Part shown: positions 3,582-45,585 of the stretch, piece after piece
Position numbering within the stretch: the first letter of the stretch is position 1
Layout: every line of letters starts with the position of its first letter
Notes under the pieces: generated by a model
What the model was told of the DNA's origin: nothing
Seen by the model: the letters and a program-made list of their open reading frames with translations, nothing else
Database searches by the model: none
Source of the DNA: Marsupella aquatica
Lineage: Eukaryota > Plantae > Marchantiophyta
Reading direction: 5' to 3'
DNA: 64,000 bases
Assembly: GCA_973895155.1 (NCBI GenBank)
Contig: OZ316896.1
Coordinates: forward strand, 7,024,232 to 7,088,231
Program-made: the position numbers and the translations under genes

Positions 3582-3590
3582 TACAGTCTA

Positions 3591-15685: not shown

Positions 15686-16045
15686 TGTCATGCCAAGGGA
15701 CAGTGCCTCTTGTGCACATCGGCATGTCCCTCGCATGCCAGCTAGGTATGTAGTTAGGGCTAGTGTACTACTTGAGTTAGTGTCATGTTCTTGTAGCGAG
15801 TTTGGGCTATTCTTGAAGCAAAGGTGTTTGTTAGTGTGATGCCTGGACCCGGTCCTACTTAGGGCATGTTTTTCTTTGCCATTTTTCAGTTATTCTTGAA
15901 TCGTTGTTGACAGAGCTCAGACAGTGCTCGTCGGTTCCGTACACGAGATTCACACAATGATTCGTTAGATGCTCCCGGGCGATCTTGGCATCCCGCCGGT
16001 TTTCGATTCGATTTCAGTACGCTTGTTTCTCTCACGCCTTTTATT
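15686..16045 (+). repeat. Terminal repeat A1 (~360 bp)
   Basis: Matches 41435-41645 + 45265-45413 with about 10 mismatches by eye. Not followed by B. Confidence 0.9.
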
Positions 16046-16499
16046 CAAGAAGAACTCTCGAGATAGTGGTGAGGGGAAGAAGATTGCTCGTGACAATTTC
16101 GACAATTTCTGGTGAAGCCATTGCAATTTCTTCGACGGACATCGGAGTGACAAGTTAAAAGTTATGGGTTTATTGTGGTGTTATGTGTATACTTAAGTGT
16201 ATACACATAACACTCCCTTGGGGGCCCCGGGTTTTTCGTTTCCGGCACAATCTTCTTTGACCTGCTAGTCCCGCTTCCAACTGTCACTGCCGATCTGCTG
16301 CCGCGGATTGCTTCCGGCTGCTGTGCCCTCGCTTCGAATTAATGCGTTTGCCCCTTTTCCTCCCGTTTTCTTTCTTTTGGTCGACCGCCACCTGGTTCCT
16401 CTCTTTCCCCCGTCGTTGCTCCTCGGCTGCTCAGCGCCCTGCATAGGGTCGCGCACCACTTTTCTTGTTACGCCGAGTACAAAGCGATAGTCGAGAGGG

Positions 16500-16990
16500 A
16501 GGGGCACACGGCCCTATGCTGCATAATTAAGGAGGGGAGGGGAGTTAAGTCGACTCCCTTCTCGGGAGTACATACAACTCCCTGCTCGGGAGTTTCTGCC
16601 AGAGGGCACGAAGCCCCAATTGCTTTTAGAGGAGGGGAGGGGGAAGCAAAAGGAGGGCACGAAGCCCACTTCACCAACATTAAAGAAGGGGGAGGGGGGA
16701 GTTGAAGCAAAAGGAGGGCACGAGGCCCTATGAGTAATTAAGAGATGGGGAGTACATTCGACTCCCTCCTCTCGGGAGTCACGGTCCTGCCAGGCACGAG
16801 GCCCCATTAAACATTAAAGCAGGGGGAATTACACTCGACACCCTGCTTTTGGGAGTACTTTTGCCAGGGGCGAGCACAAGGGCACGAGGCCCTATGAAGC
16901 AATAAAGAGGGGGGAAGGAGGAGTACATTCGAACTCCCTCACATGGGAGCCCTTCTGCCAGGCGCGAGGCCCTATGCAGGGCTCGAGTTA
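16500..16990 (+). repeat. Hairpin-forming tandem repeats in the retroelement leader
   Basis: About 7 copies of GGGCACGA(A/G)GCCC (16604, 16655, 16716, 16793, 16880...) interleaved with ACTCCC-N-GGGAGT stem-loops (16553, 16577, 16761, 16933). Confidence 0.75.
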
Positions 16991-17563: not shown

Positions 17564-19375
17564 ATGTCAGCAGAGGAGCCGAGTCGTAGCAGCTCATCAC
17601 CACCAACACCCCGGTACCACTTACGGAGTGATCCATGACCGTTGGTGCCAATTTTGACGACGCCAGCAGACAGCAGCAGCACCCACACCATGCAATCCTT
17701 CTGCTACATTTGGCAATCGCTTTACCACTACCCCGAAGCCTGCTATTGCTTCTCTACCCTTTACTCCTTCTGCATCAGTAATTGTTCCAGCTTCATCGAC
17801 ATACAGCATGGATGCCAGTCACTCATCTAGCCGCATTGAGCGCTTCAGTGGGCGGCCCGACACTGTTTCTTTGCGTGAGTTCAAATCCACTTTCTATACT
17901 GTCATTTACGAATTGGAGTTGAAGTATGGCAGCAATTTCACAAATGTGTTTGCATTTAAGCAGCTAGCCAGGTATTGCACCATGAGGCTTTGGATGTGTA
18001 TGAACAGCATTCTCAATGGCTGCTTGCTGTCACACAGTTGCCTAACCCTACCTATGCCAGTGCAATTGCGGCAGCCTCACAATTGGCCTTACAGAATGCC
18101 ATTGCAGCCCATGCTGCTGCTCCTACCACTTCCCCTCCTACTCCAGTTCCTACCACTGCGACAGTTACTCCCACTGTCTTGGCACAGGCTACATCAGACA
18201 TTTCTCCCACCATTGATTCCCCTGCCTTTGCTGATCCAGTGGCTGAGTTTTTCCAGGTTCTTGAATTGGAATTCCCAATCAAGAGTGCTGACAAAATCAT
18301 GCAGTTGGCCACCTTTGTGAGGCAGCGCGATGAAACATTGAAGATGATATATCGCCGGCTTCTCAAGCTGAAGGAGGACACCCAGAGCATCACTGACCTG
18401 GAAGCTGCTCATCGCTATCTTCGCGCATTGGAGGGCACACCAGCTCTCCATTCGCAAGTGTTGCAACAAGTATTCTCAGAGTTTGGAGACAGCTACACCC
18501 TACTCAATGTCTATGACACTACTGAGAAACTTGAGTTGGCCCATGCACATTATGAGGCCAGTATTGCGCATCCACCACGATCCAGGTACCAAGCTGCTGC
18601 CCCTACACTGGCCACCCCTTTCCGTGTGCCACAGTATGGTTCCAAGACCAAGCCAGCCCATGCTGCTTTCATGCTGCCATCTTGCAACTATTGTGGTAAC
18701 CCCAATCACAAGGCTAATGAATGTGATATTATTGCTGAGGACCTGTCTTGTGATTTTTGCGGGAAAGTGGGTCACTTGGAGGCAGTTTGTTTTGCCAAAT
18801 TCCCAGAGAGGAAGTAGCAATGACAGTAGGCCTCTCATCCTACTCCTATTTCCACTCCCCCACCAGCTAGGAGGGCTCCTACTGCATCAGTTGCTGCTCC
18901 TTCCAGTGGCAAAGCACCCGGTGCCAACAAATTGCCCAAGCAACAACAGAAGCAACCAGCTCAGAAGGAGGCTCACAACGCACAGGCAACTCAACTCCAG
19001 TCTTTGACTCATGAGGTTGAGTCCTTACGTGCCCAACTTGCCAACATCAAAGGCAAGTCCACTGCTTCTGCTGGTCCTTCTCAATCGGCTGGTCACGTGC
19101 AACCCATCCCTGGCCCAGGCACCACTGATAGCTCAGCATCTCTACCCTGCTCTTTCTATGGCTTGCCATTTGATGCTCATATGGGTGAGTGTGTGTTTTC
19201 CTCTGCTACACAGCCTGGCCTTACAGCAGAATTTTCAGATTCATTTTGCCCTTCCTATTTTGCTTACCAGCAGGCCAGTGCTGCCTCCCGTATTGCTCCC
19301 ACACGCCGCATTGTATAGGCTGATGGTCTTGCTGCCGGTCCTATGACTAGAGCGAGGGGAGCTCGGGCTGTCATG
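17564..19375 (+). pseudogene. gag of the gypsy-like element
   Basis: IERFSGRPD gag-like start, two zinc knuckles (CNYCGNPNHKANEC, CDFCGKVGHLEAVC). Stops at 17636, 18815 and 19316, plus frameshifts. Confidence 0.8.
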
Positions 19376-19788
19376 ATGGAAGGATATTGACAGGAAAAAG
19401 AGGGTTTGTCAACTATATGATAGCTCTAGTATAGAGAATGAATATCATGTATTCATTGCTTGCAAGTTTTATGAGGGGGTTAGGATGGCATCTCAAATCT
19501 TGGTGAAAGATTTGTATGCATTGTTTGGTCTGCCCCCTCAGCAACTTGGAAGATATATCTTTGCGGTGGATAGGGAAAGGAGAATAGGTTTGGAAAATCT
19601 TTCAGGGCTCTCTAGGTCCATAGGGCTCTCTAGGTCCATAGTTTCTTTGAGGACATAGTTGTCCTCTTTTGAGCAATCTCTTTTGGTTGCTCTTTTCTTT
19701 GATTGCATTATACTTTACTTTTTGTGGCAGCTCCTTTGACTTTCATGGTCCCGAAGCTTATAATACATTACCATTACCATTACCATTA
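19376..19788 (+). mobile_element. 5'-truncated LINE (RTEX/L2-like C-terminus) with (CATTAC)n tail
   Basis: Encodes KRVCQLY..ENEYHVFIACKFYEGVR (LINE ORF2 CCHC end). Removing 19376-19788 rejoins gag and protease in frame (RAVM|PQSF). No TSD seen. Confidence 0.75.
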
Positions 19789-21018
19789 CCCCAATCTTTT
19801 CAGCCACTCACACTTGCTGAAGAGCGCACCTTGTTGGCAAGGGGGGAGGGAGCTGCAGCTACATCCATTCCACCACCAGGTGCTGCTGACATTTCACAGG
19901 GAGTTGTTTCTCCTGAGTTACTTGAGCATTTCACCTCCCGTATGGCACAAAGGATTCTTACAACTCCACTTTTCAGTTGCCATGATTTACAACTGGATGC
20001 TAGAGCTGTCATGAGAGCGCTAGCAGGCTCATTGCATTCTTCATCAGCCCTTGTGCCACCAGTTTTGGAGGTCCAATCTCATGTACATACTGGACCTTCT
20101 TCTTCTCCATTACATGCTTCCACTGGTTTGGCTATCCCAGTACCAATTTCCAGTGGTAGCGATGATAGTATTGCTGCAGATTGTATGACCAGAGCTACAC
20201 TGGATTCTGGTCATGCTGCTCCATCTTTCCTGACTATGCTGTTGAGTGGAAAGACCGTGGATACTAACTCCCTTCACAAGGTACCTCATCATTTGCCAAA
20301 AGTGGTGCCTAGCGACAGGACTTCAATTTCCACCACCATTGCCATTGTTGACAATAGGAATTCAACAATCAAGTTGGAGGATCACACTCCTCAGGTGGTC
20401 ATGCTAGACACAGGTGCTCAACCAGTGATATTGGGCATTCAGTTTGCCAAGAAGATGGGACTGCTGACTGATCATTTACAGCAATCCAAGTGGCACATTC
20501 GGACTACTAGTGGCACTGTGGAGGATGTGTTGGGTGAGAGTTCTACTTTACTCACTCTCACTTTTAATGGAGGTACAGATCAGGAACTGCATTTCCCAGT
20601 CAAATGTTTGGTTACCAATGCCACTACGTATGATGTGCTCATTGGCCAGGAGGCTTTGTTCCCACCAGGTTTTACCATTGACAACTGGCATGAGCATGCA
20701 TACTACAGAGCTAATTGGCATACGGATGGCTCACACTTGGGCTACATTCCACTTGATTTGCATGGTGCTCATACACCTATGGCTCACCACTGTGTGTTGA
20801 AAGCAGTGCACACAGCTACCTATGTCAACCACCCATTGCAGGATTGGATTGAGGAGGATGATGATGAGGTGGCTGCTGCACATGCTGTTGCACGTATAGC
20901 AGCACTTTCCATCAATGTAGATCATCAACCAAAGGTGGTACAATGGCTCCAAGCAGCCCTTGGACCTTTGGTGGCTGCATTGCGCAAATTTGAGGACCTT
21001 GGGCAGCACAATGGATAA
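19789..21018 (+). pseudogene. Aspartic protease region of pol
   Basis: VMLDTGAQPVILG catalytic motif and YDVLIG C-terminal motif. Confidence 0.85.
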
Positions 21019-22272
21019 CCAATAGCCCCAATCTTGAGCGCACCAGTTACATGGACTCCTCCTTCGGATGACCTTACATTGCTTGAGCTTTTTGGTGGCA
21101 TTTCTACAGGCCTGGAAACTCTCCTACAACTGGCATGGTGGTGAAGCAGTACATCTACGTGGACATTGATCCAGGTGCAAGGCAAGTGGCTGAATCCCGT
21201 CTGCTGGAATTTTCAAAGCAATTTCCCCAGCAGTTTCCACACAGTGCATGGAAGTTTGCATTTTCTTTCTTCCCTCCAGATATCCAGCTTGTCCAGCACC
21301 GGCACTTAACCCTTCTTGGCTCCCTTGATTTGATCATAGTTGGTTGGGAATGCCAAGGGTTTTCAACTGCTGGTCACGGTGCTGGACTGCATGATTCTCG
21401 TTCTGGCCTTTTCACAGCATTGGTTCAGATTCTCACCTGGGCTCAATCCCTTTATCCTGCTGTTGGTTATATCATTGAGAATACTCCATCTCAGTTTGAC
21501 CAGCGTCCACAAGTCAAAGAGGATTTCAGTGTGGTCCAGCACTACTTGGGACCACCCCTTCTCATTGATGCAGTGCACTGTGGTTCTTATGCACATCGTT
21601 TTCATAACTTTTGGACTAACCTTGCACCACCTTCCTTGCTGGAGTTAGCTCTTCACCACACATCCAGGGACACTAACCTCACAGTGGACCAGATTTTGGA
21701 TCCTAACAGTTCTTGCCAACCAGTTACACGGCAAGAGCCAGCACCTTGGTATCCAACCAATACCATTGGACAGCCCCGTGCTGCTTGGCCTATATTTGTG
21801 TCCTTTCCAGGTGCACATGCTTTTCAGGGTGATGGTCTTGGCCTGGTTTATCGACATTCTACCGGTACATGGGATGAACCTAGTCCTGAGGAGAGAGAAC
21901 GGGCTATGGGCTTCCAACCCGGTACTATAGGTCACACCAAGATCACCAGGCTGGCCAGGAATGCTTTACTTGGCAGGGTAATGGATCTTAATGCTCTCAC
22001 TTGGCTTCTGGTCACTTGCATCCTTTTTCAGATGTACATTCATCCAGCATCTGGAGTTCCAGCTCTACCACTCCATGGTGCTGCTACATGGCATCCAAAC
22101 CAGGTGCACTTACCTCTATTCAACACTCACTGCTTCAGTCCAAGTGTTGGGGGGGAGGAGGTCCCTTGTAACGTGATTGACAATATTTCTGAGTTTCATG
22201 GTGTGGACCAACTCCGATCAACAGGTACAACAGGCCTTGGAGAGGCCTCATCACCTTATCAGCAGCATGCTA
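21019..22272 (+). pseudogene. C5-cytosine DNA methyltransferase domain (DNMT3-like) within pol
   Basis: Motif I LLELFGGISTGLE (~21077). After a frameshift ~21130: YVDID, GWECQGFS (motif IV, Cys retained), IIENT (VI), AHRFHNFWTNL (VIII), ERERAMGF (IX), RNALLGRVMD (X). Confidence 0.85.
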
Positions 22273-23177
22273 CACTAGTAGAAATTGGGGTGTTTTATGA
22301 CTAAGTTTTACGACTGCCCATGACTCCTTGTGACTAAAGTTTGGGGGGTATCAAGCCAGTCGTAATTTTGACATTCAGTCTTATTTAAAGTGACTGAAAT
22401 TGAGTGGTCAACTATGTGACTAGGGTTTAAGACACATTTTGTGACTAATAACGACCAAATCCGTACTTGGGCATTTTGGGATTTGGAGAAGGTGTAGTCT
22501 TACAAATGACTACTTTTGTAGTCATTTGTATGACTCAAAATGAGGTATGAATTAGTCACAAACAGTCAATGAGGAAGAGTTTCCTTTCGCATATATGACT
22601 GGTGCTATGGTTCAATATCGGAACACAGGCGACTGATTATGACTAGTTGGTCTTAAAAGTTTAGAGTGTATGGGCACATTAGTGACAGATCATGACTACA
22701 GATGACTAATCATTCTTAAAAATCTTAAGATTGGGCTAGACTGGTTGGTCTTATTGGGGACCACGATGTAATATATCACGGTCATATCTTAATGACCCAA
22801 AATGACTCATTAGTCTAGTTCACGACTGCATTCTTTGACCTTTTTGGTCAAAATTTTGACTCGACCTAAGGCAATTGGAGCCTGCACATAGCACTAGAAC
22901 CATGACTAATAGTCAACTCAAGCATACAAGCATACATTCAAGCACTCAAGCATACAAGTACACAAGTTTTACATGAAAACATGAGAGACAACATAGTTCT
23001 ATTTGAATCTTAGAACTCATATTAACTATTGAACACACATACATAATTTCATACAAACAAAGTTGTCACAACATGATCAGTGGATGATCCAGTGAATCTC
23101 AATTCAACTCTGCATTATGAGATATCTAGGTAACATTTGGCACCAATCATGCAGTTGTTTCTAAGTTTAGGCTAAAA

Positions 23178-26100
23178 CTACAAACCACACATTTCAGGTG
23201 TCCTTATGTAATCTGTTGGCCACAACACCAAAGAGTTCAGAGCATCTGCAATAATTGTCTGTGGCAGGTCATCATTCAAATTAGGAACTGGTAAAGGGGT
23301 CTTTGGGTTCACAAGCTTTGTCAACAACACTACAGAATACCCTGCTGGTATTTCTTTGCAATGGAATGTAATCTGCTCAGGGCGCAATTTTCCATACCCT
23401 ACACACAACTCATTTTGTTGTGGTGAGAACAATACATACTCAGGATGTGTCTGAGTTTTCAATTCTGCATCAACTTTACGCTTCTTTGCCGCTGCCACTC
23501 TACCACTTGCCCTGGCCCGACTCTTCACCTTCCGAATAGGTCTCCCAGCAGCTGAAAGCTCTACTTCTACTCCACCGTCTGTGGTCACACCCTGTATGTC
23601 ACCTGCCTGTGATGGAATTTGGGTCTCCACCTGGCCCTCCGTTTTGCATCCATTCTCACCGGCTTTGGCAACTTCTATTAACTCTTCATATGAATCCAAA
23701 CTGGGGGTATTCAGTACATTGGTAACCTCTGCAATAAGAAAATAGCAAGTCAACAGCCTATCAGCATTTTTGCCTTATCTCCAATCATGGAAACATATAA
23801 CAAAACACATTTTTTGCCTCATCTCCAATCATGGAAACATATGAGAAACCTTACCTTCCATTGCTGGGGCCATGGTACCCTCCACATCCCTTTCTGTGGG
23901 CTCCACCTCCATTTGCTGTTCAATGTTACCCTCTGGATTCATCAAATTGGAGTAATGTGACAGGTCTCTAGAACCTCCATTCCATATTGCATTCATTATA
24001 CATTTGTATTGGTCTTCTTGCACACGAATAAGCTTCTGAACATCTTCCTTTAAAGCAGTCAACTCACTTGCCATTTCACTCAATTTCACGGTCACATCAT
24101 TCTCATGAGACTCCATACATTTCAGACGATCTGATAAATCGCTAAGAGAACATGATCCACCTCCCTGCAAACACATATGTCCAACAGAGTCAATCCATTA
24201 CACCTGGAAAATAATATATGGTCCCATTGTTCATGCAAACTAGGGAATGTGGACCTCAAAGAACACTATCTGGTATGAGTACTCACTTGGTTCGAAGGAT
24301 CACTCTGGCCAGATTTCTGCTTCTGTTTTCTTGCTTCAGCTCTCACCTCTTCTTTTGTAGGGGACTGTCCATTTTGTGCCTTCTGCATACATCATATTTT
24401 CACACATTATTTGCTCGGACACAAAAAAACTCCAATACATTGTAGAAGCTAGGTCTGCCAATCCAACGATTATTCTTACCAGCTGCTCTACTATCGGAGC
24501 ATTCCCTTTCCTTCCCGTCAAGTTAAGGTTCTGAACGTTGCCACGTGCATATGCCATCTGGGAACTCTTACTCTTGCCGGATTCACTCAAGAAGTGATGG
24601 ACTAGCTTGCTCCATTGAAGAGGATCTGTCAATGGGGGAGCAGACATTCTTTGGTCCTCTCCACCTTCTTGAAACAACACGTGCAATCTCCACCTCTCAT
24701 TTTTCAGAATTGTCTTTGCATGAGCCTGAAGACACTCCATGGCTACTCCATCCGGATGGCCCACATATTTCCATTTTGCGGCTACATTGTCAACAACTTG
24801 TTGCCAATCTGCTGGATGCTGCTGCACAAAATTCACCACACTCAAATCCAGCCATCGCAATATTTCACCTTTCAAGTCAGCCAACCAACGATTCTTCCCT
24901 GCAGATGCACTGTTCACCCAACGGTTGCTCCCAATGTCCACTACTCCTTTCTTGGTTCTGTTAGGTCCTGCATTGCTTTCTGTGGTACTGCTTGGTGTGA
25001 CAGGTTTAGGATTCGCTGGAACTTTTGCACTACCCTTTAGTGGACTTCTAATGCCCCTGCATCATCCCACATCCATGTGACATCATACAATAGTAACATC
25101 AATACCTTTGTATACGTCAAATAGTGGATACCAATTGCAATCTAACTTGCAACCTGACCATCTTCACAGAATGCCCATCTCCCAGCCAAGTATTGTTTAT
25201 TGTTTCATAAGTGTAACTTACCAGATGCTTTGCCGACACTCTGTGGATAAGAGGCAGGCTCAACTACCTGTACATCTTCCCCACCAGCCAACCAATCAGG
25301 CTCTGGCCATTGCTCAGAACCATAGGCTACAATTGTCCCTTGTCCTGCCTCTACTTCAGGTTCATAGTAAACCTCCTTGTCAGTTACTCCCCAATCCAGG
25401 ATGGACAGAATCTGTAGTCACATAATTAAGCACTTTAATTAGGTCTCTAACATCACACTAGCATACCCTTTATATATTTCCAAAGTAATTTACATAAATG
25501 CCAGAATTGAAGGGCAATCCCTACTCACATCTCCAATCGTCTCCTGTGGCTCCATACTGCTCAGTATGTTGTGTTGGTCTACCTTGGCCCCGTGTAATGT
25601 GTGGTGGTGGTGGACCCGTAACATACACAACAGTGTGGCCAGCAGGTGGTGGTGGTCCATACCCATCCACTTGTGGGGCTGCTCTCCCCTGAGAGGGTGC
25701 ACTGTGTGTTGGTGGTGCTCCATACACCACAGTGTACCCCTCGCTGCGTGGGGTTGCTCTAACCTGACCTTCACCTGTGCTGTGGGTATGTGTTGTTGCT
25801 CTACTTGCAAAGGAGGGTGGGATGTGCCCACCATGTGGTGCAGCTCCATACACAATAGTGTGACCACCTACACCAACAGTTGTTGTTCCATACCCACTGC
25901 TCTGTTGGGTTTTACCTGGAGGTGGAGGTGATATGTGCCCAGCACGCCCCACTAGTCCAGACCCACGTGCAATGTAATGCACTATGCTTCGCCCTCCAGA
26001 TGTTGTTGTACTGTGCCCACAGCCCATACCCCGAGCAGCAAGTCCACCTCTCTTAGCCTGCAAGAACATATGTGCAAGGACAATAAACTTAAAAGAAGTA

Positions 26101-26771
26101 TCAGTGATTTCACTAACTCTGGACATTCTTTTGTCCAATTTTTGATCATAAAATTTCCAACAACAATTATTCTTTTCCCTATAACTTGAGTTCTAGAGTA
26201 CATTGTATGTTATGCATAGAATTATTAGGAGTAGCTTGTTAAGCTTCATATATCTTGATCAAAAAATTTCAAATATGATATTGATAAGTCTCATATTTAT
26301 CTACAATTTAGTTGATTTAAATTTCCAAAAAGTTGTTATGAAATTTCCAAATCGTTAATAATATTCCAGAATTAGTGAAACTATTGATAAGTATCTTCCT
26401 TTGACTTGCCACACTCACATGAGCCAAACATATCACTAATGTGATACACTACTTCAACACTTCATTACCACAATTTTGTTGGGCTCCACGACAGTATGCT
26501 TGCCCTGCCCATATTCTTCATCATCTGCATCGGGCTCCTCCTCTGGATAGTACTCTACATCATCAAATTCCTTATGGTTTTCATCGGATCCAACATCTTG
26601 CCCATCATCTGCAGAATCTGCCATCGATGGAATGTCCTTCACTACTAGTCTCTCACTGCGTCGCCGAGGTCCACTTGCACTGTCACTGATGCTTTGCCTA
26701 GCCCTTTTCTGCACTACACTTCTCCTCTCTGGGAGCCTGCATGCCATCCAAAAGAAACATCCATTGAACAA
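23178..26771 (-). pseudogene. CACTA TnpA/Ptta-like accessory gene (multi-exon)
   Basis: ORF 24336-24941 LKNERWRLH...QWSKLVHHFLSESGKSKSSQMAYARG resembles plant Ptta/En/Spm transposase. Terminal exon 23178-23753 (VGYG..HCKEIPAGYSVV..PLPVP..VLWP). Exon structure is not fully resolved. Confidence 0.6.
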
Positions 26772-26991
26772 CTCTAGTAAACATAGCTACATTCATTCCC
26801 ATTAATGAGCAAAGTCTGGATAGGTTCTGTGGATGATAATTGTTCCCTTACAAAGCGGAAAATCCTTGTCTGAGCTCAGCTCTCAAAGCTGCCAGCCTCT
26901 CATCAACATATGCTGCATGTATCATGGCTTGCTTTTCAGACTCACTCATCTCATCATCATCTTCTTCCATGATCCTATTCAATGACAAACA

Positions 26992-31703: not shown

Positions 31704-31787
31704 GCTACGTTAGTTCAAATATCACATTTATTTCAAAGATGTGATTTGTACACAAAGCTTCTCAAAACTGATGCTACTACGTACTCC

Positions 31788-32660: not shown

Positions 32661-33279
32661 GTACACACACCCTACGTGATCAGAGTGAATATTGGAAGAG
32701 TGGGTTCACCTGCCAATAGAAGGACACCAAAATTCCTGCTTTTTAAGTTGATCCGGTCCACTGTTGCTCAAGTCCAATTTTGATAGGTACAGGGGATATG
32801 TGAACAATAAGTACTAGGCACCTGCACCGATGCAAGACATTGTTTGAGTATATACTAGGAAATCCATATCAAAGGTAAAATGAAGTGCAACCAACTTGTC
32901 ATGGCCGCACATACATATTTTGTTGTAAAGGAGGATACATTCAATGACAAAGTTATAGGGCAATTTGATTAATTGCATGCCTGATAATTTATATGCTTAC
33001 AACTTTGAAGTCCTGTTTTAATTTAGCAGTCTGATGAGAGTGTTTGTGAAAATGACCACTCAGCCTAAATACTTCCAAGAAGGCTTGTAAGGATAATTTT
33101 TTATAGGCATGTACCCAGCCACTGACGCTAGAGCACAGGATAAGTGCTGCCTATACAAACTTGCCTACCCAACTCCTTTTCAAAATTGGAATCTCTGCAA
33201 TCCCCAAAAAATAGTACATCCACATCAGGTGCCCTGTGCATGTACAATGTTCAGCTTCACAGCCAAGATATGTGATCTC

Positions 33280-33960
33280 TCACAGGAGTGCGCAAGGTAG
33301 GATCAATGGCATGGCGATGACAATAAATATCCATCGATCAACACCATGTGCAGAGTGATCATAGATTTCTCTATCACAAGCATAACCCTCTGCTTGATGA
33401 TCTTTCAAGCAATGATAGAGCCACATAGTGGGACACCTAGCACAATGGACTATGTCAGCCCAATACTCATCATCATGCTCACCACATGCCTTGCACCTAT
33501 GAAGTGGGCAAGTTGTGGCATGAGCAGGCAAACACTCAAAACAGAAAAACCTCACACAAAAACGGTCTGGACATTTCCTAACATCCGGTGCAGCATCAAC
33601 AAAGCCCTCATAGGACCCCAACTTCCCACACTGTGCACACTTAGCCTGCTTCTCCAAACAATCAATGCACATCCAGTCTCCCTGGTGTGTTGATGGGAGG
33701 CCCACCCCTGGACAATTGTTTTCTGCAGCAAGGTGAGACTCCGGGTTGAGGTGGAAATGCCTCATGCAAGGGCCCTCACAGATGACCAAGCTCCCACCAT
33801 CGTCACAAATGGCACAACAATGAGCTGCCTTCTGGAAAATCTGACTTGCAGAGAAGTTAGTAACGTGTGGCCAGGTACACCTGTGTTGCTCACCTCTATC
33901 ACACGCTTTTTTGCTGGAATTTTGGGGTGTGCCATGCCTACGCATGAGACAGACAGTACA
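33280..33960 (-). CDS. EDM2/NSD-type composite PHD-finger protein exon (CACTA cargo)
   Basis: CAICDDGGSLVICEGPCMRHFH..CIDC..CAQCGKLGS..C...C..FFCFEC..CPLHRCKAC..CARCPTMW..CL closely follows the EDM2 PHD cassette pattern. Confidence 0.7.
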   Translation of the reverse strand, partial: CTVCLMRRHGTPQNSSKKACDRGEQHRCTWPHVTNFSASQIFQKAAHCCAICDDGGSLVICEGPCMRHFHLNPESHLAAENNCPGVGLPSTHQGDWMCIDCLEKQAKCAQCGKLGSYEGFVDAAPDVRKCPDRFCVRFFCFECLPAHATTCPLHRCKACGEHDDEYWADIVHCARCPTMWLYHCLKDHQAEGYACDREIYDHSAHGVDRWIFIVIAMPLILPCALL

Positions 33961-36900
33961 ATTAAGTAGACAATACAGGCAATACATTTTGGCAGACTTT
34001 ACAAACAATATGTTTTAGCAGACTTCACAGAAAGTAAAATTTAGCATTTAAGGTACAACGGCAACTTATACTGCAATGAATTGCAATGGCCACACAAGGA
34101 TGCAGGGCAGACATACTTTTGGTTTGTTGAGCCCACACACAAACTGATCTCCTAGTACAATTGCTCCACCAGCACCTCAATTTCGTGGCTATGATTCACC
34201 AAAAAAGATCTGCAACAACATTTCATGCATTTGAATCACATACAATAATCATCACATGAAAAACAGGCATTTTTCCAACAAGATTGGGATCAAGTAGTGT
34301 GATGAGGGTTATACTTTATACATCCTATATAGGCTATGATAGTGAGACAAATAAGTTTGAATACGTGACTGTATGGGATGTTTGCAGGTTATGACATGGC
34401 CCATTAATTCTGTCATATAATGTTACAATGTTGGCCAAGTTAAAGCAGTCATTCAAGCAGTCTTTCATTGGAGAATTTAAAGAGAGCTTGCTTAATTCTT
34501 ACATTAGGATATTCCACTTAGTGCAGCCAAATTAGGATAAGTTATATACTATGGATCCTAAACCCTGCACCCAAATTGCTCAAACTTCAAAATTTTAAAT
34601 AAATATCCGCGGTGCTTAAGTCAGAACATTAAGTTATAGGTCATTGCACTCTGGTCTGTGCATACGGTGTGACAAGTGCTCCTCTACAACGTGTGATCCA
34701 AACATGTGTAGACACCAAACGCACCGGTGGTGGGGTTTGGGAGGCCAGGACAAGTGACATCGCCAGGCACACTGCAGGATGGCGAGTGGTTCCAGATGAT
34801 ACATTGTGCTCTATGCAAAAATCGACATCCAAGAGAACGGTCATCCAACTCTGGGCCAGAAGCCCGACAGGCAGGATAGTCATATTGGCAACTGTGTACA
34901 CACCCTTGGGCCCTAATTTGTGGCGGGTCATGTACGAGAGACAGAAATACCAAGGATGTTGGGAAGGGTAGAGAAGCAGGTACATGCCGACTGTAGTTAT
35001 TCCTGGCAACAACAAGGTACTCAAAGTACCATGCAAACTGGGCAGGAAGGATCCCAAGTCTCACATACTCAAGGCGCAACCTCTCTGCCTTGCGTGCAAG
35101 CCGCACATGTTCAGCATTGCGGGTGCTCACCATAATTGTTGCTTTTGTTCAGATGTCTTGTGTTCACGTCCTTTGACGTCCTTCGATCAGCAAGGTGAGC
35201 AGGAGCTGTACTTGCCTCACCAACAACAACCAACCTGAACTTATCAGTTCCCACTCACTATGTCATTCCCTTGATTCCAACTAGAGGTCATAGTATAAAC
35301 TTAGCATGAAACACTCCTAATCAACAATGTTGCAAACTACAATATCCAGAAAGACTGAAAGTCTCTGCCTGCAGTGAGCAACAGAGAGGTAGTTCACTGC
35401 TTGCAAGAGTGAACTGAGCAGGAGTGTAGGCAGACTGGCATTCAGTTGGCACAACTATATTTTGCATCAACACAAAAGCTCTTATAAACATGATATGCAT
35501 GAAACTCGTCAATAAAATAGAAGGAAACTAAAGAGTGGATGCAAAACAAAGCATATTACAGCACAGGTCGGCACAGGAAGTGGCCCGCAGCACTCAGTCA
35601 AACTTCATAACCAAAGTACAGACTGTGTACACAATAAGGAGCTTCCTAAAAAAGAGGCCACCAAAAGGGGTGGCAGAAAGGTCACTTGACAAAATGAAGA
35701 TGGGAATGAAAAAACTGCCTCCAAGCTCAATACATGTGACCAAGTATATATTCAAAGAGGATCCCCAACAGAGTAGAAGACAGTATGATCCCAATTACTA
35801 TGTTCTATCCATAACTACACGATCTGAAAAATGTTATGAGCAGACATGAAGAAGCCAGCAAAACAAAGCAAACAGAGCAAAACAGAGCATGGATCGAGAA
35901 AATGAACAACATCTAGTTCTTACGCAAGAAACTCAGTGACAGCAAACAAATTCACCAGCCCCCAGGGAGTGAAAAGCAAATGAGTACCAAGCCAACCAAC
36001 TAAGACTGACTATGAAATGCAAGTGACATCATTTCAACCAAAAAATACAATAAAGCACTTAGGCAACATTAATATAGAAGTGTAGTGGAATTATATCATG
36101 CGACAAATCGTACTTGGTTCTACCTGAGGTGTACAGGCATACTGCCCTCAGGTAGAATGTGTATGCAATTACATACACATGAGGATCCCAAACAAAGCAT
36201 ACAACAATATGATCTGAATTCCCAATTACTCTGTTCTGTCTATACCTATGTTCATCAAAAAATGTTATGAGCAGACATTGAGAAGCTAGCAAAACAGAGG
36301 AGCCAATCGAAGCCAAAATATTACATTGGAGGTTGAATACAGCAGTCACCGCCAAGAATGTATGCATGAAACAAACATGAAGGTATCGAATATGTATATG
36401 CATTCTAGACTTTCATGCTAGACAGTGGCCAAAGTTAAAATGAACTAGTTTTGACTTTATGACTCTCATAATGAAAATATTTTATTTCAGAATTATATTC
36501 TATTTCAGAATTGGTTCAACTCTGTGGATTGTGAACTGTCCCACTTGGAATTCCACTATTTGGGCTATCTAAGAATGCAGTTCAAAGGACATACAGTGCA
36601 AGACAGTTAGAGATCATGTCTTCATTCCGACGTCTAATTGGACATTTTATGTCACAAACTGCGCAAGCAATGAAGTCCATGGAATTGTCTCAAAAATGCA
36701 GCTTCTATTGTTGGTAAAAGCAACTATGAGTTTCCTATTGAGTGCCCCCGATGCACAATACTACCAGAGGCCCACTTTAGACTGCGATGGCTGTCATTAC
36801 TTATTGGGAACTCGGATGCATATATATTGAAATGCTTCGCAGAGTGTTCCAACCACAAAAAACCTAACATCAATCTCAACATTCAGTCCCGTCTCAGAAT

Positions 36901-38563
36901 TGATTTAGAGGAGGCTTAGCATTCAGTACAGTGTCAACAATCAGTCTTGTCTTCACATTCAACATCCGATTGCAAGGGGCTTCGATGAAAGCACAAGACA
37001 GAGCTATAGAAGAAGAGACAGAGGAAGGCAGGTGTGTGTTCGGGGAAAATGTGAAGCTCCAAAGACCACCCTAAACTGAAATTGCAGCGCGCAGTTGGCC
37101 GGTCGTAGGTTGATAAAAGCAAAGCATAGAGCCACTGGGACGTCTGCAATCTTTCCGTCGCAGTTGAGGTCCTATGCCTGATGACATGATCAAGAATGAG
37201 TAGCTACAATGTCCAGTCTCTCTTGACAGTGTGACATAGCAGCAATACATACATTGGATCAAAGCACGAGTCGGAGAAAAACAATGAGAGATAAAAATGG
37301 ACTTTTGCTCACCCATGTGCTGGATGGAAGAATGCAGCTACGAGGGCCGGTCTCCAACTACAGCTCCTTGATGGCAAACCGCAGGCTCTTCCTAGTTCTT
37401 CAACCAAAAACTCACCCGAAACACACTCTTGCAATGTCCTGAGTTAGTCGCAACAACTCCAATGTAGGTTGCAGCTGCCAATCCGTTCCCTCCGCCCTCC
37501 TTGCCAATGCCAACTCCCAATAGCAATGAGGCTTGTTCAGCTGACCTCCTTCGTAGGAGCTCCCAACTCCCAAAGCAAAACCGTCACTACTCACAGCTAA
37601 AAAACGGTCCCTGGACCTTGTCGCTGCCAATGTGCATCGTGCACTCAGTTCTCCTGCCCACCAAGAACTTCAACTATAACTTCAACTCCAATGCCCAAGA
37701 AGATTGATGAGCTCCTTAGTCAAAGACGCAGCTGGAAGGGTATGCATGCACTTACAGTTCACTAAGCTCCAATGCCCGGGACGATTGAGGAGCTGCTCTT
37801 GAGACTGGTTGCAGCTTGAATGGTAAGACCATAGGAATCCCGCGACGTTGTTCGAGCTCACAATACGCTTGGAAGAGAAGGATAGAGCTGCAGTAGACTT
37901 CACCCTAAGTCTTTACGCCTCCCACACAGGTCCCGCATTAGTAAAGCTTGTGCAGTGCCTTCCGCAGCAGTAGCGAAACTCCCGATTGACTCCCTCCTTC
38001 CGCAGCAGTAGTGATCACCTCCCTTGGCGCAGCTGCGAATGTGCTCTACTTGCAGCCCAAGGACTCAAATGTGTCCAGCACGCAGTGATGGAAGCCACAG
38101 CAATGGGAGCACGCATGGACGGGACCCACACCACCACAATGAGCTTGTAGTTTTACGAGGGAAAGTGAAGGAAATGCGCACCCTAGCCAGCCGCAAGGAT
38201 GCACTTCCGCCTTGGTGTCTGCAAACTCTCCCGTCTCCCGATCGAAGGAAGCTCAGACATGTGTGACTAAACGGGGACGTGCGACTAAACGGGGATGTGC
38301 GACTAAACGGGACGCAGGAACGGAAAAGTTTGACCTGATGGTGGCGATCAACTCCATCCAATGGTGCGTGTCCCCCAATTAACCCCCTCCCCCTTGAGAT
38401 CGATATAACCCCCACACCCATGTGATATAACCCCCCTAAACCCCCTTTAGGTGTCTTGGTAAAACCCCCCCTAAACCCCCTTTAGGTGTCTTGCTACAAC
38501 CCCCCCTAAACTTTGGCAGGAAGGGTTACATGCATGTGGATGAGTTAGCTAGGCCTAAACTGT

Positions 38564-39821
38564 ATGTGTGGAGACTACAAGCCACTGAACCTGGTCACAC
38601 CCCAGGACAGGTACCCCATGCCACGGCCAGAGAAGCTATTTGACAGCATTGGAGACTCAGACATCTTCACTCTTGTGGATCTAAGGCAAGGCTTTAACCA
38701 GATTTTGCTGCTTGCAAAGGACCGCAAGAAAATAGCTTTCCATGGCAGTAACCAACTATGGGAGTGGTTGGTGATGCCATTTGGCTTGAAGAATGCGCCC
38801 ATATTCTTTTAAAGAGTCATGGACCAGGTTCTTCAAGGTGCTGAGTTTCTGAAATGCTACATTGATGATGTGTTGGTCCACAGCAAAGGATTTGACCAGC
38901 ATCTACTTGACCTTGAGGAGCTATTCATGAGGCTTAAGAAGGTGAACCTAAAGATACACCCCAAGAAGTGTGAATTTGCTGTCAGATCAGTAGTATACCT
39001 TGGGCACCACATTCTTCCAAATGGAACCATGGCTCACTGGGCCAAGGTGGTATCCATCTTGGAAATGCCCACTCTTACCGATGTTCACACTTTGAGGAGT
39101 TTTATTGGGTTGTGCAATTACTACCGGATCTACATCAAAGATTTCAGCACCATTGCACACCCATTGTATGTTTTGTTGAAAAAGAATGTGACTTGGACAT
39201 GGAGTACATATGCTGAGGCAGCATTTGCCACTTTGAAGGAGAAGCTCTCTGAATACCCGGTGCTGAGAAGACCTGATTTCAGCAAGGTCTTTGTGCTACA
39301 CACAGATTGGAGTGCCCTTGGGATTGGTGCCATTCTGGGCCAGCATGATGAGGAAGGTAAAGAGTACGTCATTGCCTATGCATCCAGGAGCAACAATCAG
39401 GCAGAGAGTCATTATTCTTCGTATGAGGGTGAATGCCTTGTTGTTGTGTGGGCTGTCATACATTACAGGCCCTACCTCTATGGGACTAGGTTTGTCCTCT
39501 ACACCGACCACCAGCCCTTGAAGTGGTTGATGACCAACAACAAGCTTACTGACAAGCTTGCTCGTTGGGCGCTCATACTCCAGGAGTATGATTTTGAGGT
39601 AATTCATAGGCCTGGTGTGACACATCAAAATGCTGACACTATGTCCCGCAGCCCTTTGATTGCCTTTGATGATTCCTCAGATGCACGGCAGGATTTTGAC
39701 CAGGTTTCCATCCTGCCTACATTTCATGCATCTACCTATCTTGCTTTGCTGCCATGTTATGTTGTTGACCAACCTGGGGTGGACATATGGGAGGACAGCG
39801 ACACTCTGAGATTTTTGCAGC
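38564..39821 (+). pseudogene. Reverse transcriptase (N-terminus missing) + RNase H
   Basis: MCGDYKPLN, DLRQGFNQI, MPFGLKNAP, YIDD. RNase H motifs HTDWS, YEGEC, TDHQPL, NADTMSR. Stop at 38810. Confidence 0.92.
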
Positions 39822-41216
39822 ATGGGAGTACCCATACAGGTTACTGCAACCCAGAGAGACCAAATTCAGCAAAGGTCCAAGCGCTACTTGTGGAAGGGAG
39901 ATCATCTCGTGCACTGCTTGCCAGACAAGGAAGTGGTGGTTCCACCCATTCATGAGAGGGTTGGCCTTATCCGTAAGGTACATTATGAGCTTGGTCATTT
40001 TGGCATCAAGAGGACTTATAGCCTCTTGGTTCCCCATTATCATTGGAGAGGCATGCATGGCCAGGTTCGAGATGTTATTGCCCGGTGTGAGCAGTGTGAT
40101 AGGGTAAGGACTTCTTTCACATCTTGGCAACCCACACTTCATCCACTCCCTATTCAGGGCATGTTTTATTGCTGGTCATGTGATTTGGCTGGAGAATTAC
40201 CCCTCACTTCTCAGGGTAATCTCTACATCATGATCATGATAGAGCATTTCTCCAAGTGGATAGAACTTGTGGCATTGCCGGATAAGACCTCTCGTAGCAC
40301 CAGCCAGGCATTCCTGCAACAAGTTCTCAGTCGCTTTGGAGCTTGTGCAGAATGTCTCACAGACCAGGGCTCAGAGTTTAGAGGAGAGTTCCAAGAGCTA
40401 CTTGATCAGGCCCTCATTGATCATCGACGGACATCACGAGATCACCCACAGGCAGAGCGCATGGTTCAGACATGCAAGAAGGGCCTCCAAAAGATTTGCC
40501 TCACCAAAAACAAGGAGGATTGGGACCTGGCCTTACCTTACATTGCTATGGGGTATAGGATGTCCAGACATGCATCACTGTCTAACTTTTCTCCCTACTT
40601 CTTGTTGTTTGGTCGTCACCCAGTTCCACCTTTTGCTATTGCTGCTCACATGCTTCAGGTGGTGGACTTGGATTCAGCTGTGACTTGGTCTGATGTGATC
40701 TCTAAGAGGGCTGCCCTATTCAAGAGGGTTATGCCCATGGCCATGGAGAATTTGGCCATTGCACAGCATAGGGACACATTGCGTTATGCACACACATGAG
40801 GGGGCAGTTTTCAGCCCAAGGTCAGGAAGTTTGATGTGGGAGATTTTGTGTACTTGCAGCGGCAAGCTAACGACACCCTAGACACCTCTATCAGTCGTAC
40901 TATTCTCAGGGTTAAAGCTATTCGATCGTTTGGAGTGCTAGAGTTACAAGGGGCAGATGGGCGCACAATTGCTGACAATGCCAAGAATTGTGCCCCTTGT
41001 CATCTGCCTAACCTGGATCCCACCATTGTGACTTCTACCTGGATTCCACCTGTGGACTACCCTTGCAAAGTGTATTTGCGAATTGACGATGTTGACCAGA
41101 TGCTGCTGTGTGATAATTGCAATGGAGGGTACCATCTTTTCTGCCTTCGGCCTGAACTTACCCACGTGCCAGAAGGGTTATGGTTTTGCCCTTCCTGTGC
41201 TCCACATGCTACCTGA
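39822..41216 (+). pseudogene. DDE integrase with C-terminal PHD finger
   Basis: HHCC (HYELGH..CEQC), SCDLAG, TDQGSEF, AERMV. Stop at 40797. PHD MLLCDNCNGGYHLFCLRPEL..PEGLWFCPSC. Confidence 0.92.
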
Positions 41217-41256
41217 CTTTTCTTCAGCCCTCCTTTTGGCTGTGGTTTGGGGGGGA

Positions 41257-41432
41257 TACAGAGGTTTACACCTCCACTACGTACATACCACCTCAGTTGC
41301 TTTTTCTTGGCACTTGTGAATGTGATTGGACTTTTTCTAAGGATGTTGGTTGCTAGCAGCTTGCACATATGCATTGCCGGTGACTTGTATGTTTTTGATA
41401 CACTATGGCTACGATACTATAATGTCACGATA
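41257..41432 (+). repeat. Repeat B1, preceded by a polypurine tract GGGGGGGA (41249-41256)
   Basis: Matches 45414-45585 and ends CACGATA, followed by GC and then A2. Confidence 0.9.
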
Positions 41433-41434
41433 GC

Positions 41435-44400
41435 TGTCATGCCAAGGGACAGTGCCTCTTGTGCACATCGACATGTCCCTCGCATGCCAGCTAGGTATGT
41501 AGTTAGGGCTAGTGTACTACTTGAGTTAGTGTCATGTTCTTGTAGCGAGTCTGGGCCGTTCTTGAAGCAAAGGTGTTTGTTAGTGTGATGCCTGGACCCG
41601 GTCCTACTTAGGGCATGTTTTTCTTTGCCATTTTTCAGTTATTCTTGTTATGAGGTAACTAGTCCTAGACCAGACTAAGAGGTTACCTTTATCATGGTTA
41701 CCTCAAGACACTATATATACACCCGGTTGATCCCCAACCGAGTGATTCATTCATTCATTCAATCTCTCTCCCTCTCCAACTATGTATGAATCCTATATCA
41801 CAACACATTATCAGCACGACTCTCGGAGGCTGAGCACTTGAATTTTTTAGGGATTCGACAAGTGACAAAAATTAGACACTTGAGGGAATCCCAAGACAAA
41901 ATCCCTTCAAGGAAACCTTCATTTGAGAGTCCATGTCAACCTGGCGTTGGAAATTGATGGAGTATCCTCTATGAGAAACTGACTCCCAAGAAATTAGAAG
42001 AAACAAAATCAGAAGGAGAGGCTGATCAGACAAAGAGTCGAACCCATGGATTGACCCTTATGGGATCATTAATAAAAGCTTTAGAGGGATTGATTCTGAA
42101 ATGCAAGATTGAAAGTACACAACATGATTTATTGAAGGAGGAGAAGAAACACTGCAGCGCAAAGTCCATAGAGAAACCAGGATAAAGCTTGGGCTGGAGT
42201 CAATCAATCCAATCAAAGAGACCTGATTGAATAGAGGCAGAGCACAATCAACAAAATTTCAATCAAGGTGAGATCTGAAAAGGCACCACACCCTATAGAG
42301 AACGAATGTTGCATTAGGGCTCAACAACCGGAGGGTGAAAAGGACTGAAGGAAATTTGAGGGATGGAAACCTCATGAGAAGACAACACAGTGATCACGGA
42401 TGCAGCCGCAAAGCCATGCAAAAGGGGGAGAATCGATGCACAAGCCCAAAACGGCAAAATTTGGACCAGGCTTTTCGAGAAACCATCGACAAAACTTGAT
42501 AAGTGCAAAACCCCCATACTTGCAACTCATTATAAAGAGTATTTTTACTTACAAAAGAATCAGATCACTTAAAGCATCTTTTCAAAGCTTTTAAATCACT
42601 TTAAGATACATGTGTAATCCTTAACATAAACCTAAATCACAAGCTTACACTCTCATTTTATAAATGTGAATAATGTGCCTTTACACATTACCTACCAATA
42701 CACATGTTGAGTTTACAAGCATTTATACACATTGGATACATATAACATGGTTGTTACACCATTAATATCACTTTCCACCATAGGGGGAGGAAAGCACATT
42801 GTACCCACAACTATCTCCCACCTCCTAATGTCATTTAATTTGGTTCATTCACCTTCTAGTACCATTTGAACTTATACACTTTCTGGTATCATTTGATCTC
42901 ATAAGATCCAAACGGACTCAGATAAGGGACTTTCCATGACTAACAAAGGTAAAGGTAGAGATGATTTGATAATGGGCAAAGTCCCTAATCTCATCTATAC
43001 ATGAGTTAATGAGGAGTTAATATGGGCAAAGCCCATAATCTAACCCCTACATTCTCTTGATCAGTGGGCATTCCTATCGGATCTTACCTATAGATGAGTT
43101 CCAAATTTCAGAGATATTCCTAACACTCACAATTTCAAGAGAAAATAACATGCATTTTATGCAGATCAATGGGAAGAAACTTCATTGTCTCTAACTTATC
43201 TACTCAAAAACTTAAACCAAACTCGTGATACACTACAATGGAAAGTACCTCTATACTTGGCCATACACATAGTGATTAAGACCCAAAACCAGAATCTTAT
43301 ACTTTGATTAAAGTTTTATACACTTTTAGCATGCATGCCTTTACAACTTGTACAGAAGTAAGACCACAAACCTCATCCCTTCGGACCTAGGATCATGTTC
43401 ACCAGACAAAATGAAAACACTTACTCTAAGACACTGGACTAGGATAAGGGAATTAGAAAACTAACAATGTTAAAGGTATGGTACAGATGTTTGGATTATG
43501 GGCAAAGCCCCTAACCTCATCTAGTCAAGACTCAATGCGGGGTTAATATGGGCAAAGCCCGTAATCTACCTTGATACACTCTTCATTTTAGGGAACGGAA
43601 TAACATCGCGGACCAATGACACATTCACCTTTGTGTATTACTATTAAACAAATCTCTTAGATTGAAACTAAAATTAAGACAATTTTCATCCCCACACCCA
43701 ACATAGAATTAACGGGAAAACAATATGAATTAGATGCAGACCAAGGGAAAGAAACTCAATTCTCTCAAAACTTATCTATTGAAGAACTTGAGTCCACCTA
43801 CACCACAATTGTACGTACAACTAGTACTTGGAAACTAAACAGAGACTATCCTCATATATCTCTATACGAGGTGCCAAATAGTTTAGGGGGAGCATCTTAT
43901 CTCCACAAGTTACTCTAACTTCAAATCTCCCTACATGGCTATCCCATGTCTCAATAATATTTTGAATCTACTTACATGGCCTGCTACCCCATGTCTTGAC
44001 ACACTTGTCAAACTACCCCGTGATATTTGCAGACGTGCAGGCAGACGTGCCACTCACGGGAGACCTAACTTAACCGACACCCTCTGGTGTGATTCTGGTT
44101 CATACACCCTCTGGTGTAGCTTGAGACCTAACACCTCTAGTGTCAACAACCCTGTGTCCACTAGCACCTCTGTGCCTCCTGACACCTTCGTGTCCATCAG
44201 CACCACTATACTCTCAAATGAGCTTATTGCCATAGACTCTCCCATGATAACATTGCCCCATCCTACCCACATATGGGTCTTTTATCTTGACTTTGGGCAT
44301 TTCTAAATATGGTACTTACACCATACCAAACTAGGACTTTTCTATCATTTTTATAATAATACATGATTAGCATCCGTTGATGCAACATGTCTACTCCACA

Positions 44401-45413
44401 CTTTGGAAAACTCCCATTTAGCAATTGGGCTAATTAGCACCTTCGGTATCAATCCAGTGATCTGAAACATATAGGATAATGCCACTGCATCCCCACACAA
44501 CCCACATTAATTATCTTAATACCCCCTGGTATTAGATAGCATGCATAAGCCATACTAAAACATGACATGGTTCCTCCAGCTACTAACCAAACTACTAATT
44601 ATTTGGAACTTAGATTGTTTATTTGATGCAAGGCCATACAAGTGACCCAAATTTCAAATGCGGAGAACTAGACAAAGTTTTTCATGAAGGCATTGACCCC
44701 TCCTGTCCACAGACACCACTGCCATGCAATTGAACTCCGAAGCTTACACCGCCTGATTACTACTGATTGACACACACCACCACTGTGGTTCAACTCTCAC
44801 ATCTCACCAAGAGAACCAACCGGCTGTACTCTTTTTCCTTTAGGGTCATATATTTTATTTTTTCTCTACTACCCTGGTAGAGTTGTTTTTACCCCAATCT
44901 AGCACCGCTAAAGGTTTTAATGAGGCAGTCCACCTCTTTGGTCAATCAAACATACATGTCTATAAGCATGCAAACACTTTTTACTATCACTGAAACTCAT
45001 CCCGTGCAAGTCTATAAGCATGGTGATAGATTTTTCTTACCTAGTTCTAGGACTAGTCTAGATTGTCTCCATAACTCCCATTATGTAGCCAAGGGGGAGT
45101 GTTATGAGGTAACTAGTCCTAGACCAGACTAGGAGGTTACCTTTATCATGGTTACCTCAAGACACTATATATACACCCGGTTGATCCCCAACCGAGTGAT
45201 TCATTCATTCATTCAATCTCTCTCCCTCTCCAACTATGTATGAATCCTATATCACAACAATTCTTGAATTGTTGTTGGCAGAGCTCAGACAGTGCTCGTC
45301 GGTTCCGTACACGAGATTCACACAATGATTCGTTAGATGCTCCCGACCGATCTTGGCATCCCGCCGGTTTTCAATTCGATTTCAGTACGCTTGTTTCTCT
45401 TACGCCTTTTATT
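41435..45413 (+). repeat. Repeat A2 (interrupted by copia insertion at 41646-45259)
   Basis: 41435-41645 and 45265-45413 reconstruct A1. Confidence 0.9.
41646..45259 (+). mobile_element. Non-autonomous Ty1/copia LTR element (Bianca-like), 160-bp LTRs, TSD ATTCT
   Basis: LTRs at 41646-41805 and 45100-45259 (TG...CA, one mismatch seen). PBS-like TATCAGCACGA at ~41809, PPT AAGGGGGAG at 45091-45099, degenerate RNase H tail ~44650-44745. ATTCT at 41641-41645 and 45260-45264. Confidence 0.88.
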
Positions 45414-45585
45414 TATAGAGGTTTACACCTCCACTATGTACATACCACCTCAGTTGCTTTTTCTTGGCACTTGTGAATGTGATACTTTTTCTAAGGATGT
45501 TGGTTGCTAGCAGCTTGCACATATGCATTGCCGGTGACTTGCATGTTTTCGATACACTATGGCTACAATACTATATGTCACGACA
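45414..45585 (+). repeat. Terminal repeat B2
   Basis: Copy of B1 ending CACGACA, directly followed by TSD AGAC. Confidence 0.9.

Follow-up and report, generated by a model that had tools for sequence, protein, structure and literature searches.

We analysed a 64-kb window of the liverwort Marsupella aquatica (contig OZ316896.1, positions 7,024,232 to 7,088,231 of the forward strand) that carries a 29.9-kb retrotransposon with split terminal repeats, one part (A) standing alone at its left end and the order B-GC-A-B closing its right end. Our data suggest a Ty3/gypsy element, of a type known from mosses, liverworts and algae, whose integrase probably cuts a palindrome inside the long terminal repeat (LTR), rather than the ends of the cDNA, with the leftover ends then being joined. 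The textbook view is that LTR elements and retroviruses integrate via the ends made by reverse transcription; if the proposed route is true, this would be the first LTR retroelement in which junction cleavage is the obligatory route. Somewhat less firmly, we also think it likely that an old streptophyte Ty3/gypsy lineage moved its attachment site into the LTR and integrates, as a rule, by cleavage of one palindrome and end joining.

Split direct repeats at the window locus

The element spans positions 15686-45585 of the window (coordinates here and below are those of the window and refer to its + strand unless stated otherwise), with outer ends TGTCATG... and ...CACGACA, flanked by the two copies of a target-site duplication, AGAC, at 15682-15685 on the left and 45586-45589 on the right. 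Repeat A1 (15686-16044), which begins with TGTCATG, the left attachment half-site, likely carries the promoter, the transcription start, R and U5, and BLAST within the window found no B after it. At the right end, a polypurine tract of seven G (41249-41255) lies just 5' of B1 (41256-41432), which ends in CACGA(C/T)A and is likely the start of U3; it is followed by a GC spacer (41433-41434) that forms the middle of the attachment palindrome GA(C)A-GC-TGTC, by A2 (41435-45412), which is split by a nested LTR element, and by B2 (45413-45585), which ends in CACGACA, the right attachment half-site. The B1/A2 joint of the window copy reads CACGATA-GC-TGTCATG. A1 and A2 agree at 209/213 and 148/154 positions on either side of the nested 3.6-kb element, and B1 and B2 at 166/172, with four gap positions. 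A second copy of the host transposase family (1698-3587, - strand) bridges the insertion in alignment, its residues 340-472 matching 15289-15684 and its residues 470-630 matching 45580-46068; the host gene was thus interrupted without loss, and the element boundaries are correct.

Most of this had been proposed in a first-pass annotation of the sequence. BLAST of the window repeats bears out its order AGAC/A1...B1-GC-A2-B2/AGAC, the second transposase copy its claim that removal of the element, with its TG...CA ends and 4-bp AGAC duplication, restores the host frame, and the seven G its polypurine-like run before B1. Its layout stands; judged from relatives, the end of A1 shifts to 16044 and the start of B1 to 41256, and its description of A2 overlooked the nested 3.6-kb LTR element at 41646-45259.

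The split layout is family-wide

Relatives were taken as the best 80 of 502 confirmed loci in a metagenome scan, and 59 of them were counted after leaving out six loci that share a flank with, and so duplicate, another insertion, 13 loci without a readable 3' end (three of which were long enough, yet without B) and two interrupted loci. Among the 59 independent loci, the 3' end reads B-nn-A-(B) in 29 and stops after B alone in 30 (the A...B form); where both ends are intact and in view, there are 11 A...B-A-B and 10 A...B copies. A 4-bp duplication with at most one mismatch flanks 18 of these 21 complete copies, at mutually unrelated targets. Two whole LTRs flanking an insert were found in none of 22 complete copies (the 21 relatives and the window), and B precedes A1, as the mirror form A-B-A...B would have it, at none of the 25 intact starts of A1, of which 24 lie in loci and one in the window. 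In L156, whose integrase is 53% identical and whose repeats are otherwise unalignable, the order is G tract, B (106 nt), CACGACA-GC-TGTCACG, A and B, and L147, a relative of L156 on a self-closed contig, shares this joint; the B-GC-A joint is kept as a 2-nt-spaced palindrome down to 52-53% integrase identity.

The split-repeat layout is the normal, family-wide form and not a one-off. The first-pass annotation had asked whether independent insertions with different 4-bp duplications would share A...B-A-B, which the 11 complete relatives do, and whether other copies would carry full A+B LTRs at both ends, which no relative with both ends in view does. That the window copy is decayed and holds three nested inserts might have pointed to a one-off rearrangement, a tandem insertion or a misassembly at this locus; the chance of this is now negligible, as the same arrangement recurs at different targets in 11 complete relatives, again in L156 and in a published Klebsormidium element, which refutes such a reading.

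The A...B copies may be recombinants between B1 and B2 or, with a probability that we place just short of even, direct integration products of a one-LTR circle or of a double palindrome cut, an alternative that concerns this form only and is compatible with the internal-cleavage model. The share of A...B copies climbs with an age proxy, as recombination would have it, but weakly (7/19, 9/20 and 14/20 loci from the youngest to the oldest third; p 0.055-0.095), and the 7/19 of the youngest third speak for direct products, as do the 30/59 loci ending after B1, the 4-bp duplication in 9/10 of the complete ones and the agreement in form of six shared-flank locus pairs. On the other side, a solo A-B with the duplication CAAT in L041 indicates that the repeats do recombine, and the A...B form may reflect collapse in short-read assembly; A1 is out of view in 19 of the 30 loci of this form. 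A further arrangement was seen in L079, with two B-A-B 3' ends and a duplicated integrase region within 4.2 kb, 87-92% identical.

One fixed joint and one variable joint

The spacer between B1 and A2 is 2 nt long in 30/30 joints (AC 10, GC 7, GT 6, AT 5, TC 1, AA 1), whereas the A2/B2 joint (n=29) is exact in 14 cases, substituted in one and changed in length in 14 (Fisher p 6e-6 for length variation). The mix of spacer letters is the pattern expected from decay of a methylated GC. The spacer forms the middle of the palindrome GACAGCTGTC, whereas inserted ends lack it, and the conservation of palindrome and spacer in relatives agrees with the earlier proposal that the internal B1-GC-A2 is a pre-built end-to-end junction. 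The types of A2/B2 joint are mixed inside well-supported clades of a 24-row junction tree, itself poorly resolved. In L073, A2 runs into 134 nt copied from upstream of the G tract, which here precede B2, and their beginning, GG/ATACC, resembles the normal plus-strand start. In addition, B1 and B2 share per-element variants without position-specific grouping, with a mean distance of 0.093 within an element, compared with 0.116 between B1 copies, 0.126 between B2 copies and 0.123 between B1 and B2 of different elements. We infer from these sequence patterns that A2/B2 is a junction of two cDNA ends that would be remade at each insertion.

Reverse transcription itself might yield A...B-GC-A-B, by re-priming at an integrase nick or by a jump of the reverse transcriptase (RT) between cDNA ends, and such a form would need no host end-joining. 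Template jumping could produce the 14/29 exact A2/B2 joints and five more that overlap at a shared AT, and an RT-made form could account for the absent mirror form (0/25); yet the one-base losses and gains, the larger deletions and the L073 insert look like ordinary end-joining, and the jump between cDNA ends is hypothetical. We consider this origin unlikely. A free choice of site by the integrase, suggested by copies ending at an inner CACGACA 15 nt upstream, was rejected because the same shortening is present at B1, and because it differs between L005 and L006, the two loci of one insertion.

Predicted self-priming and the probable reverse-transcription LTR

The first-pass annotation noted that no canonical tRNA primer-binding site (PBS) follows A1, which is true but incomplete, as a Tf1-type self-priming site is present at 16045-16056. 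This site, TCAAGAAGAACT, is complementary at 11/12 positions (shuffle p 0.001) to AGTTATTCTTGA at 15888-15899, the predicted 5' end of the RNA and self-primer. In 21/23 A1 copies, a 15-nt stretch across the end of A1 can pair (12-15/15 complementary) with a site inside A1 that follows a TATA-like box by about 30 nt; the two exceptions are L071, which has lost the site, and L048, in which the boundary is misplaced. The pairing is maintained in three subfamilies despite different letters, as in the window (AGTTATTCTTGA/TCAAGAAGAACT) and L147 (ACATCTTTGTCA/TGACAAAGATCT). This complementarity suggests that the element likely self-primes in the manner of Tf1, independently of tRNA; in the accessible text of the sources, such self-priming is described for Tf1 and Tj1 (PMC4600332) and predicted for Tcn1 (PMC6317226). 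By established LTR mechanics, priming just behind A and at a G tract in front of B would give a cDNA with B-GC-A at both ends, and the LTR of reverse transcription is likely B-GC-A (U3-R-U5).

PAT/Ngaro elements, of the DIRS order, are not known to make a variable target duplication on insertion. They include SymbioDIRS-Dnmt3, have A...B-A-B split direct repeats like the window element and in some cases carry methyltransferases; unlike them, the window element has a DDE integrase, a protease, 4-bp duplications of unrelated targets and LTR-type priming, and no tyrosine recombinase was found in it. The first-pass annotation saw the hallmark of Ngaro/PAT in the repeat arrangement; the likeness is confined to that arrangement, and enzymes, priming sites and target duplications are of LTR type. 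A PAT/Ngaro-like cycle, in which a full-length RNA through B2 would lead to a circle via A and B and a DDE integrase would have replaced the tyrosine recombinase, could draw on the layout shared with SymbioDIRS-Dnmt3 and KnitGypsy-Dnmt3 (accessible text of PMC5890265). It is very unlikely, as a self-priming site conserved next to A1 and a G tract preceding B1 amount to ordinary LTR-type priming, the A2/B2 joint varies whereas the templated B1/A2 joint does not, and the RT is closest to Ty3 among solved structures.

A model of integration through an internal palindrome

In the internal-cleavage model, which we prefer, the RNA would start inside A1, about 30 nt past a TATA box in most relatives, and end in A2. 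Its first 12 nt would prime the minus strand as in Tf1, the G tract would prime the plus strand, and the product would be a linear cDNA, B-GC-A...B-GC-A, whose real ends (ATAC... and ...AAT) would be without TG/CA. The integrase would then cut CA/GC on both strands of the palindrome GACA-GC-TGTC in the 5' repeat, leaving two recessed CA-3' ends with 2-nt overhangs, and this is the shape of processed retroviral ends. The cDNA's own ends would be joined imprecisely into A2/B2, either before integration, in a two-LTR circle, or after it, by host repair, two orders of events that the sequences do not separate. Cutting of the 5' palindrome and end joining would give A...B-GC-A-B, whereas a 3' cut would give A-B-GC-A...B; the former would be the sole product to keep both the promoter and the 3' R, and therefore the sole self-copying form. 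The weakest step of the model is the preference for the 5' palindrome, which we tentatively attribute to the 5' repeat becoming double-stranded first, after second strand transfer.

A symmetric two-LTR circle is disfavoured by the 11 complete A...B-A-B copies against no mirror copies (p 0.001), and would be insufficient because the mirror form is seen in 0/25 intact A1 starts. The first-pass annotation had suggested a non-canonical route with a circular or tRNA-independent intermediate opened by integrase; this is supported overall, tRNA independence by way of Tf1-type self-priming, although a plain symmetric circle fits badly.

Several points weigh against the internal-cleavage model. A symmetric circle predicts the mirror form equally often, and an extra asymmetry must be assumed. 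A single metagenome scan supplied most of the relatives, which probably belong to one host or to a few related ones; two relatives (L013 and L025) have no matching duplication, and the duplication of L071 has two mismatches. The window copy is without a clear TATA box and has one primer mismatch. The junction tree is star-like, with 8/21 forks well supported, and a 2-nt loss at ATAT could instead be post-insertion slippage. Finally, the nearest neighbour of B2 is its own B1 in 6/22 elements only, a low count that arises because post-insertion decay swamps the signal.

Comparison with known systems

By its enzymes and priming the element is Ty3/gypsy and not of the DIRS order: it has the domain order gag-protease-RT-RNase H-integrase, an H2C2 DDE integrase, TG...CA ends with a 4-bp duplication, a PBS and a polypurine tract, but paired whole LTRs are absent from it and its complete relatives (0/22). 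Tf1/Sushi and Tcn1 chromoviruses carry two whole LTRs and integrate by their cDNA ends. They self-prime with the 5' end of their RNA just after U5, as predicted for the window element too, and share its Ty3/gypsy domain order (PMC4600332 and PMC6317226, accessible text). The window element differs from Tf1 and Tcn1 in having a PHD finger in place of the chromodomain, plus a methyltransferase. In insertion sequences of the IS3/IS30 type, a DDE enzyme opens a junction of abutted ends with a 2-3 nt spacer; these are bacterial DNA transposons without an RNA step, unlike the window element.

According to the accessible text of the sources, HIV-1 integrase is able to cleave within a palindromic junction of two LTRs (PMC1905944) and circles opened by junction cleavage can integrate (PMC4372172), with further literature on how the integrases of HIV-1 and foamy virus cut the junctions of two-LTR circles in PMC1180852. 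In those accounts junction cleavage is a side route and the palindrome arises only after joining of the cDNA ends, whereas in the window family the repeat itself encodes the palindrome, the cDNA ends would be without TG/CA, and the palindrome appears to be used by every intact-ended copy.

The closest published element is KnitGypsy-Dnmt3 of Klebsormidium nitens (de Mendoza et al. 2018, PMC5890265), a Gypsy polyprotein with a Dnmt3-like domain; the legend of Fig. 4c states that its repeats are arranged as in DIRS and its domains are typical of Gypsy. As far as the accessible text goes, it shares with the window element the Dnmt3-like methyltransferase and the DIRS-like repeat layout, and that text covers the alga only, with no priming, target duplication, palindrome, A...B form or mechanism. 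The layout is thus already in print, in the available part of that source, as a figure-legend remark without mechanism. A literature search, with subscription papers, Repbase, theses, figures and supplements outside it, found only PMC5890265 for a Gypsy element with this layout; the same search gave no match for the self-priming site, the internal palindrome, the joint contrast, the repeat-less A...B form or the missing mirror form. A 2026 preprint mentions streptophyte Gypsy-DNMT3, and the part available does not discuss termini.

Whether junction-bearing circles are true precursors has long been disputed, and what evidence there is, from HIV-1 and foamy virus, concerns a side route only; this family, apparently built for junction integration, makes the question testable with a short DNA substrate and with extrachromosomal DNA of species in which young copies are present. 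The proposed model would also account for a layout left as a single legend line, and the family shows that DIRS-type split repeats can arise with a DDE enzyme. Together, the data point to a lineage of retrotransposons with methyltransferase and PHD domains, found in algae, liverworts and related plants, which search tools based on paired LTRs would miss, above all in the repeat-less A...B form.

Relatives and phylogeny

The nearest named integrase is from another liverwort, Calypogeia fissa (85% identity), and integrases of K. nitens are 49-57% identical to that of the window. Records of Marchantia, Klebsormidium, Closterium and Haematococcus contain RT-RNase H relatives that also carry PHD and methyltransferase domains. 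When 146 RT-RNase H rows, which did not include the named plant reference lineages Tcn1, Chlamyvir, Phygy and Selgy, were placed in a FastTree tree, all PHD-bearing rows fell in one clade (support 0.98), and a subclade (support 0.92) unites the window, L027, L033 and L147 with streptophyte proteins and no chlorophyte ones. The K. nitens RTs, which may differ from those of the named KnitGypsy elements, share this subclade. The best solved-structure match of L147 is Ty3 Gag-Pol (E 7e-100). Within the PHD clade, P0187 has its cytosine methyltransferase between RNase H and integrase, and other members (among P0191, P0192 and P0217) have a Dam-type adenine methylase (PF05869) in its place. The split form was checked in three streptophyte-type branches, and Gypsy-7a_cRei of Chlamydomonas, in the accessible text of PMC9940879, has a PHD finger and near-ordinary LTRs, so that the split form need not span the whole PHD clade.

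In L147 (3-6632), gag-protease-methyltransferase and RT-RNase H-integrase-PHD share a frame with a single stop codon between them, which suggests read-through. L147 and L156 are eukaryotic transposon contigs within a cyanobacterial genome bin, and they are the only group members among 75 loci from prokaryote assemblies, seven others having ordinary paired LTRs. Viral contigs searched with the integrase alignment gave no matches; a second scan gave 66 distant loci, used as outgroup only, most of which (7-9 kb RT-bearing genomes) were taken, from size and identity, to be plant pararetroviruses.

Coding content, nested insertions and neighbouring features

The Pfam domain order of the element is zinc knuckle, aspartic protease, C5 cytosine methyltransferase, RT, RNase H, H2C2, rve integrase and PHD finger. 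The gag region with its CCHC zinc knuckle (17658-19318; PF00098, E 0.0012) is broken across several frames and is followed by the aspartic protease (20368-20658; PF13975, E 7e-6) and a Dnmt3-like C5 cytosine methyltransferase (21040-22150; PF00145, E 7e-6), in which motif I (LFGGISTGL) is out of frame with motifs IV-X and whose best solved-structure (PDB) match is DNMT3A (E 0.0017). Its catalytic motif is GWECQ in the window and several relatives and GWPCQ in others, the cysteine being constant and the preceding proline variable. The RT (YIDD) and RNase H (38564-39700) contain a premature stop near 38810, and the integrase comprises an H2C2 zinc-binding domain and rve DDE core (39810-40796; PF17921 and PF00665) and a C-terminal part with the PHD finger (40800-41216; PF00628, E 4e-10). 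No tyrosine recombinase matched in the element open reading frames (ORFs) scanned, 14 further window ORFs or the two long ORFs of L147. The Pfam scan agrees with the first-pass annotation that a protease and a gypsy-type DDE integrase stand in place of a tyrosine recombinase; of the gene content, the Dnmt3-like methyltransferase and the PHD finger had been overlooked.

The window copy is dead: its frames are shifted, RT carries a stop, a 16-kb CACTA transposon has inserted, about 130 residues being lost there, and a further insert measures 400 nt. The nested CACTA transposon, about 16 kb long (22273-38550, - strand), carries Tnp2 at 29194-30768 and, beside it, ORFs matching PHD-like, BRCT and F-box; its right terminus was not found in the window, and about 130 pol residues between methyltransferase and RT are missing at its site. 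The small LTR element inside A2 (41646-45259) has 160-bp LTRs identical at 159/160 positions, a 5-bp duplication (ATTCT) and no ORF longer than 139 aa, and this young element inserted exactly in A2's copy of the self-primer sequence. The third insert, about 400 nt (19387-19790, boundaries approximate), has no counterpart in relatives; its last 117 nt are 98% identical to window positions 3591-3707, which adjoin, on the upstream side, a transposase-like ORF 12 kb outside the element. Several imperfect repeats of 30-36 nt lie at 16500-16980, in the leader between primer site and gag.

Outside the element, the 630-aa transposase-like ORF, without a Pfam match, has two copies, at 1695-3587 (- strand) and at 15289-15684 plus 45590-46068 (+ strand), one of which is the insertion target. 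No tRNA genes are present in the 64-kb window. A perfect 27-nt inverted repeat pair (14944-14970 and 15261-15287) lies just left of the insertion, and a Nup133-like gene with long exons occupies 51262-56365 (PF08801).

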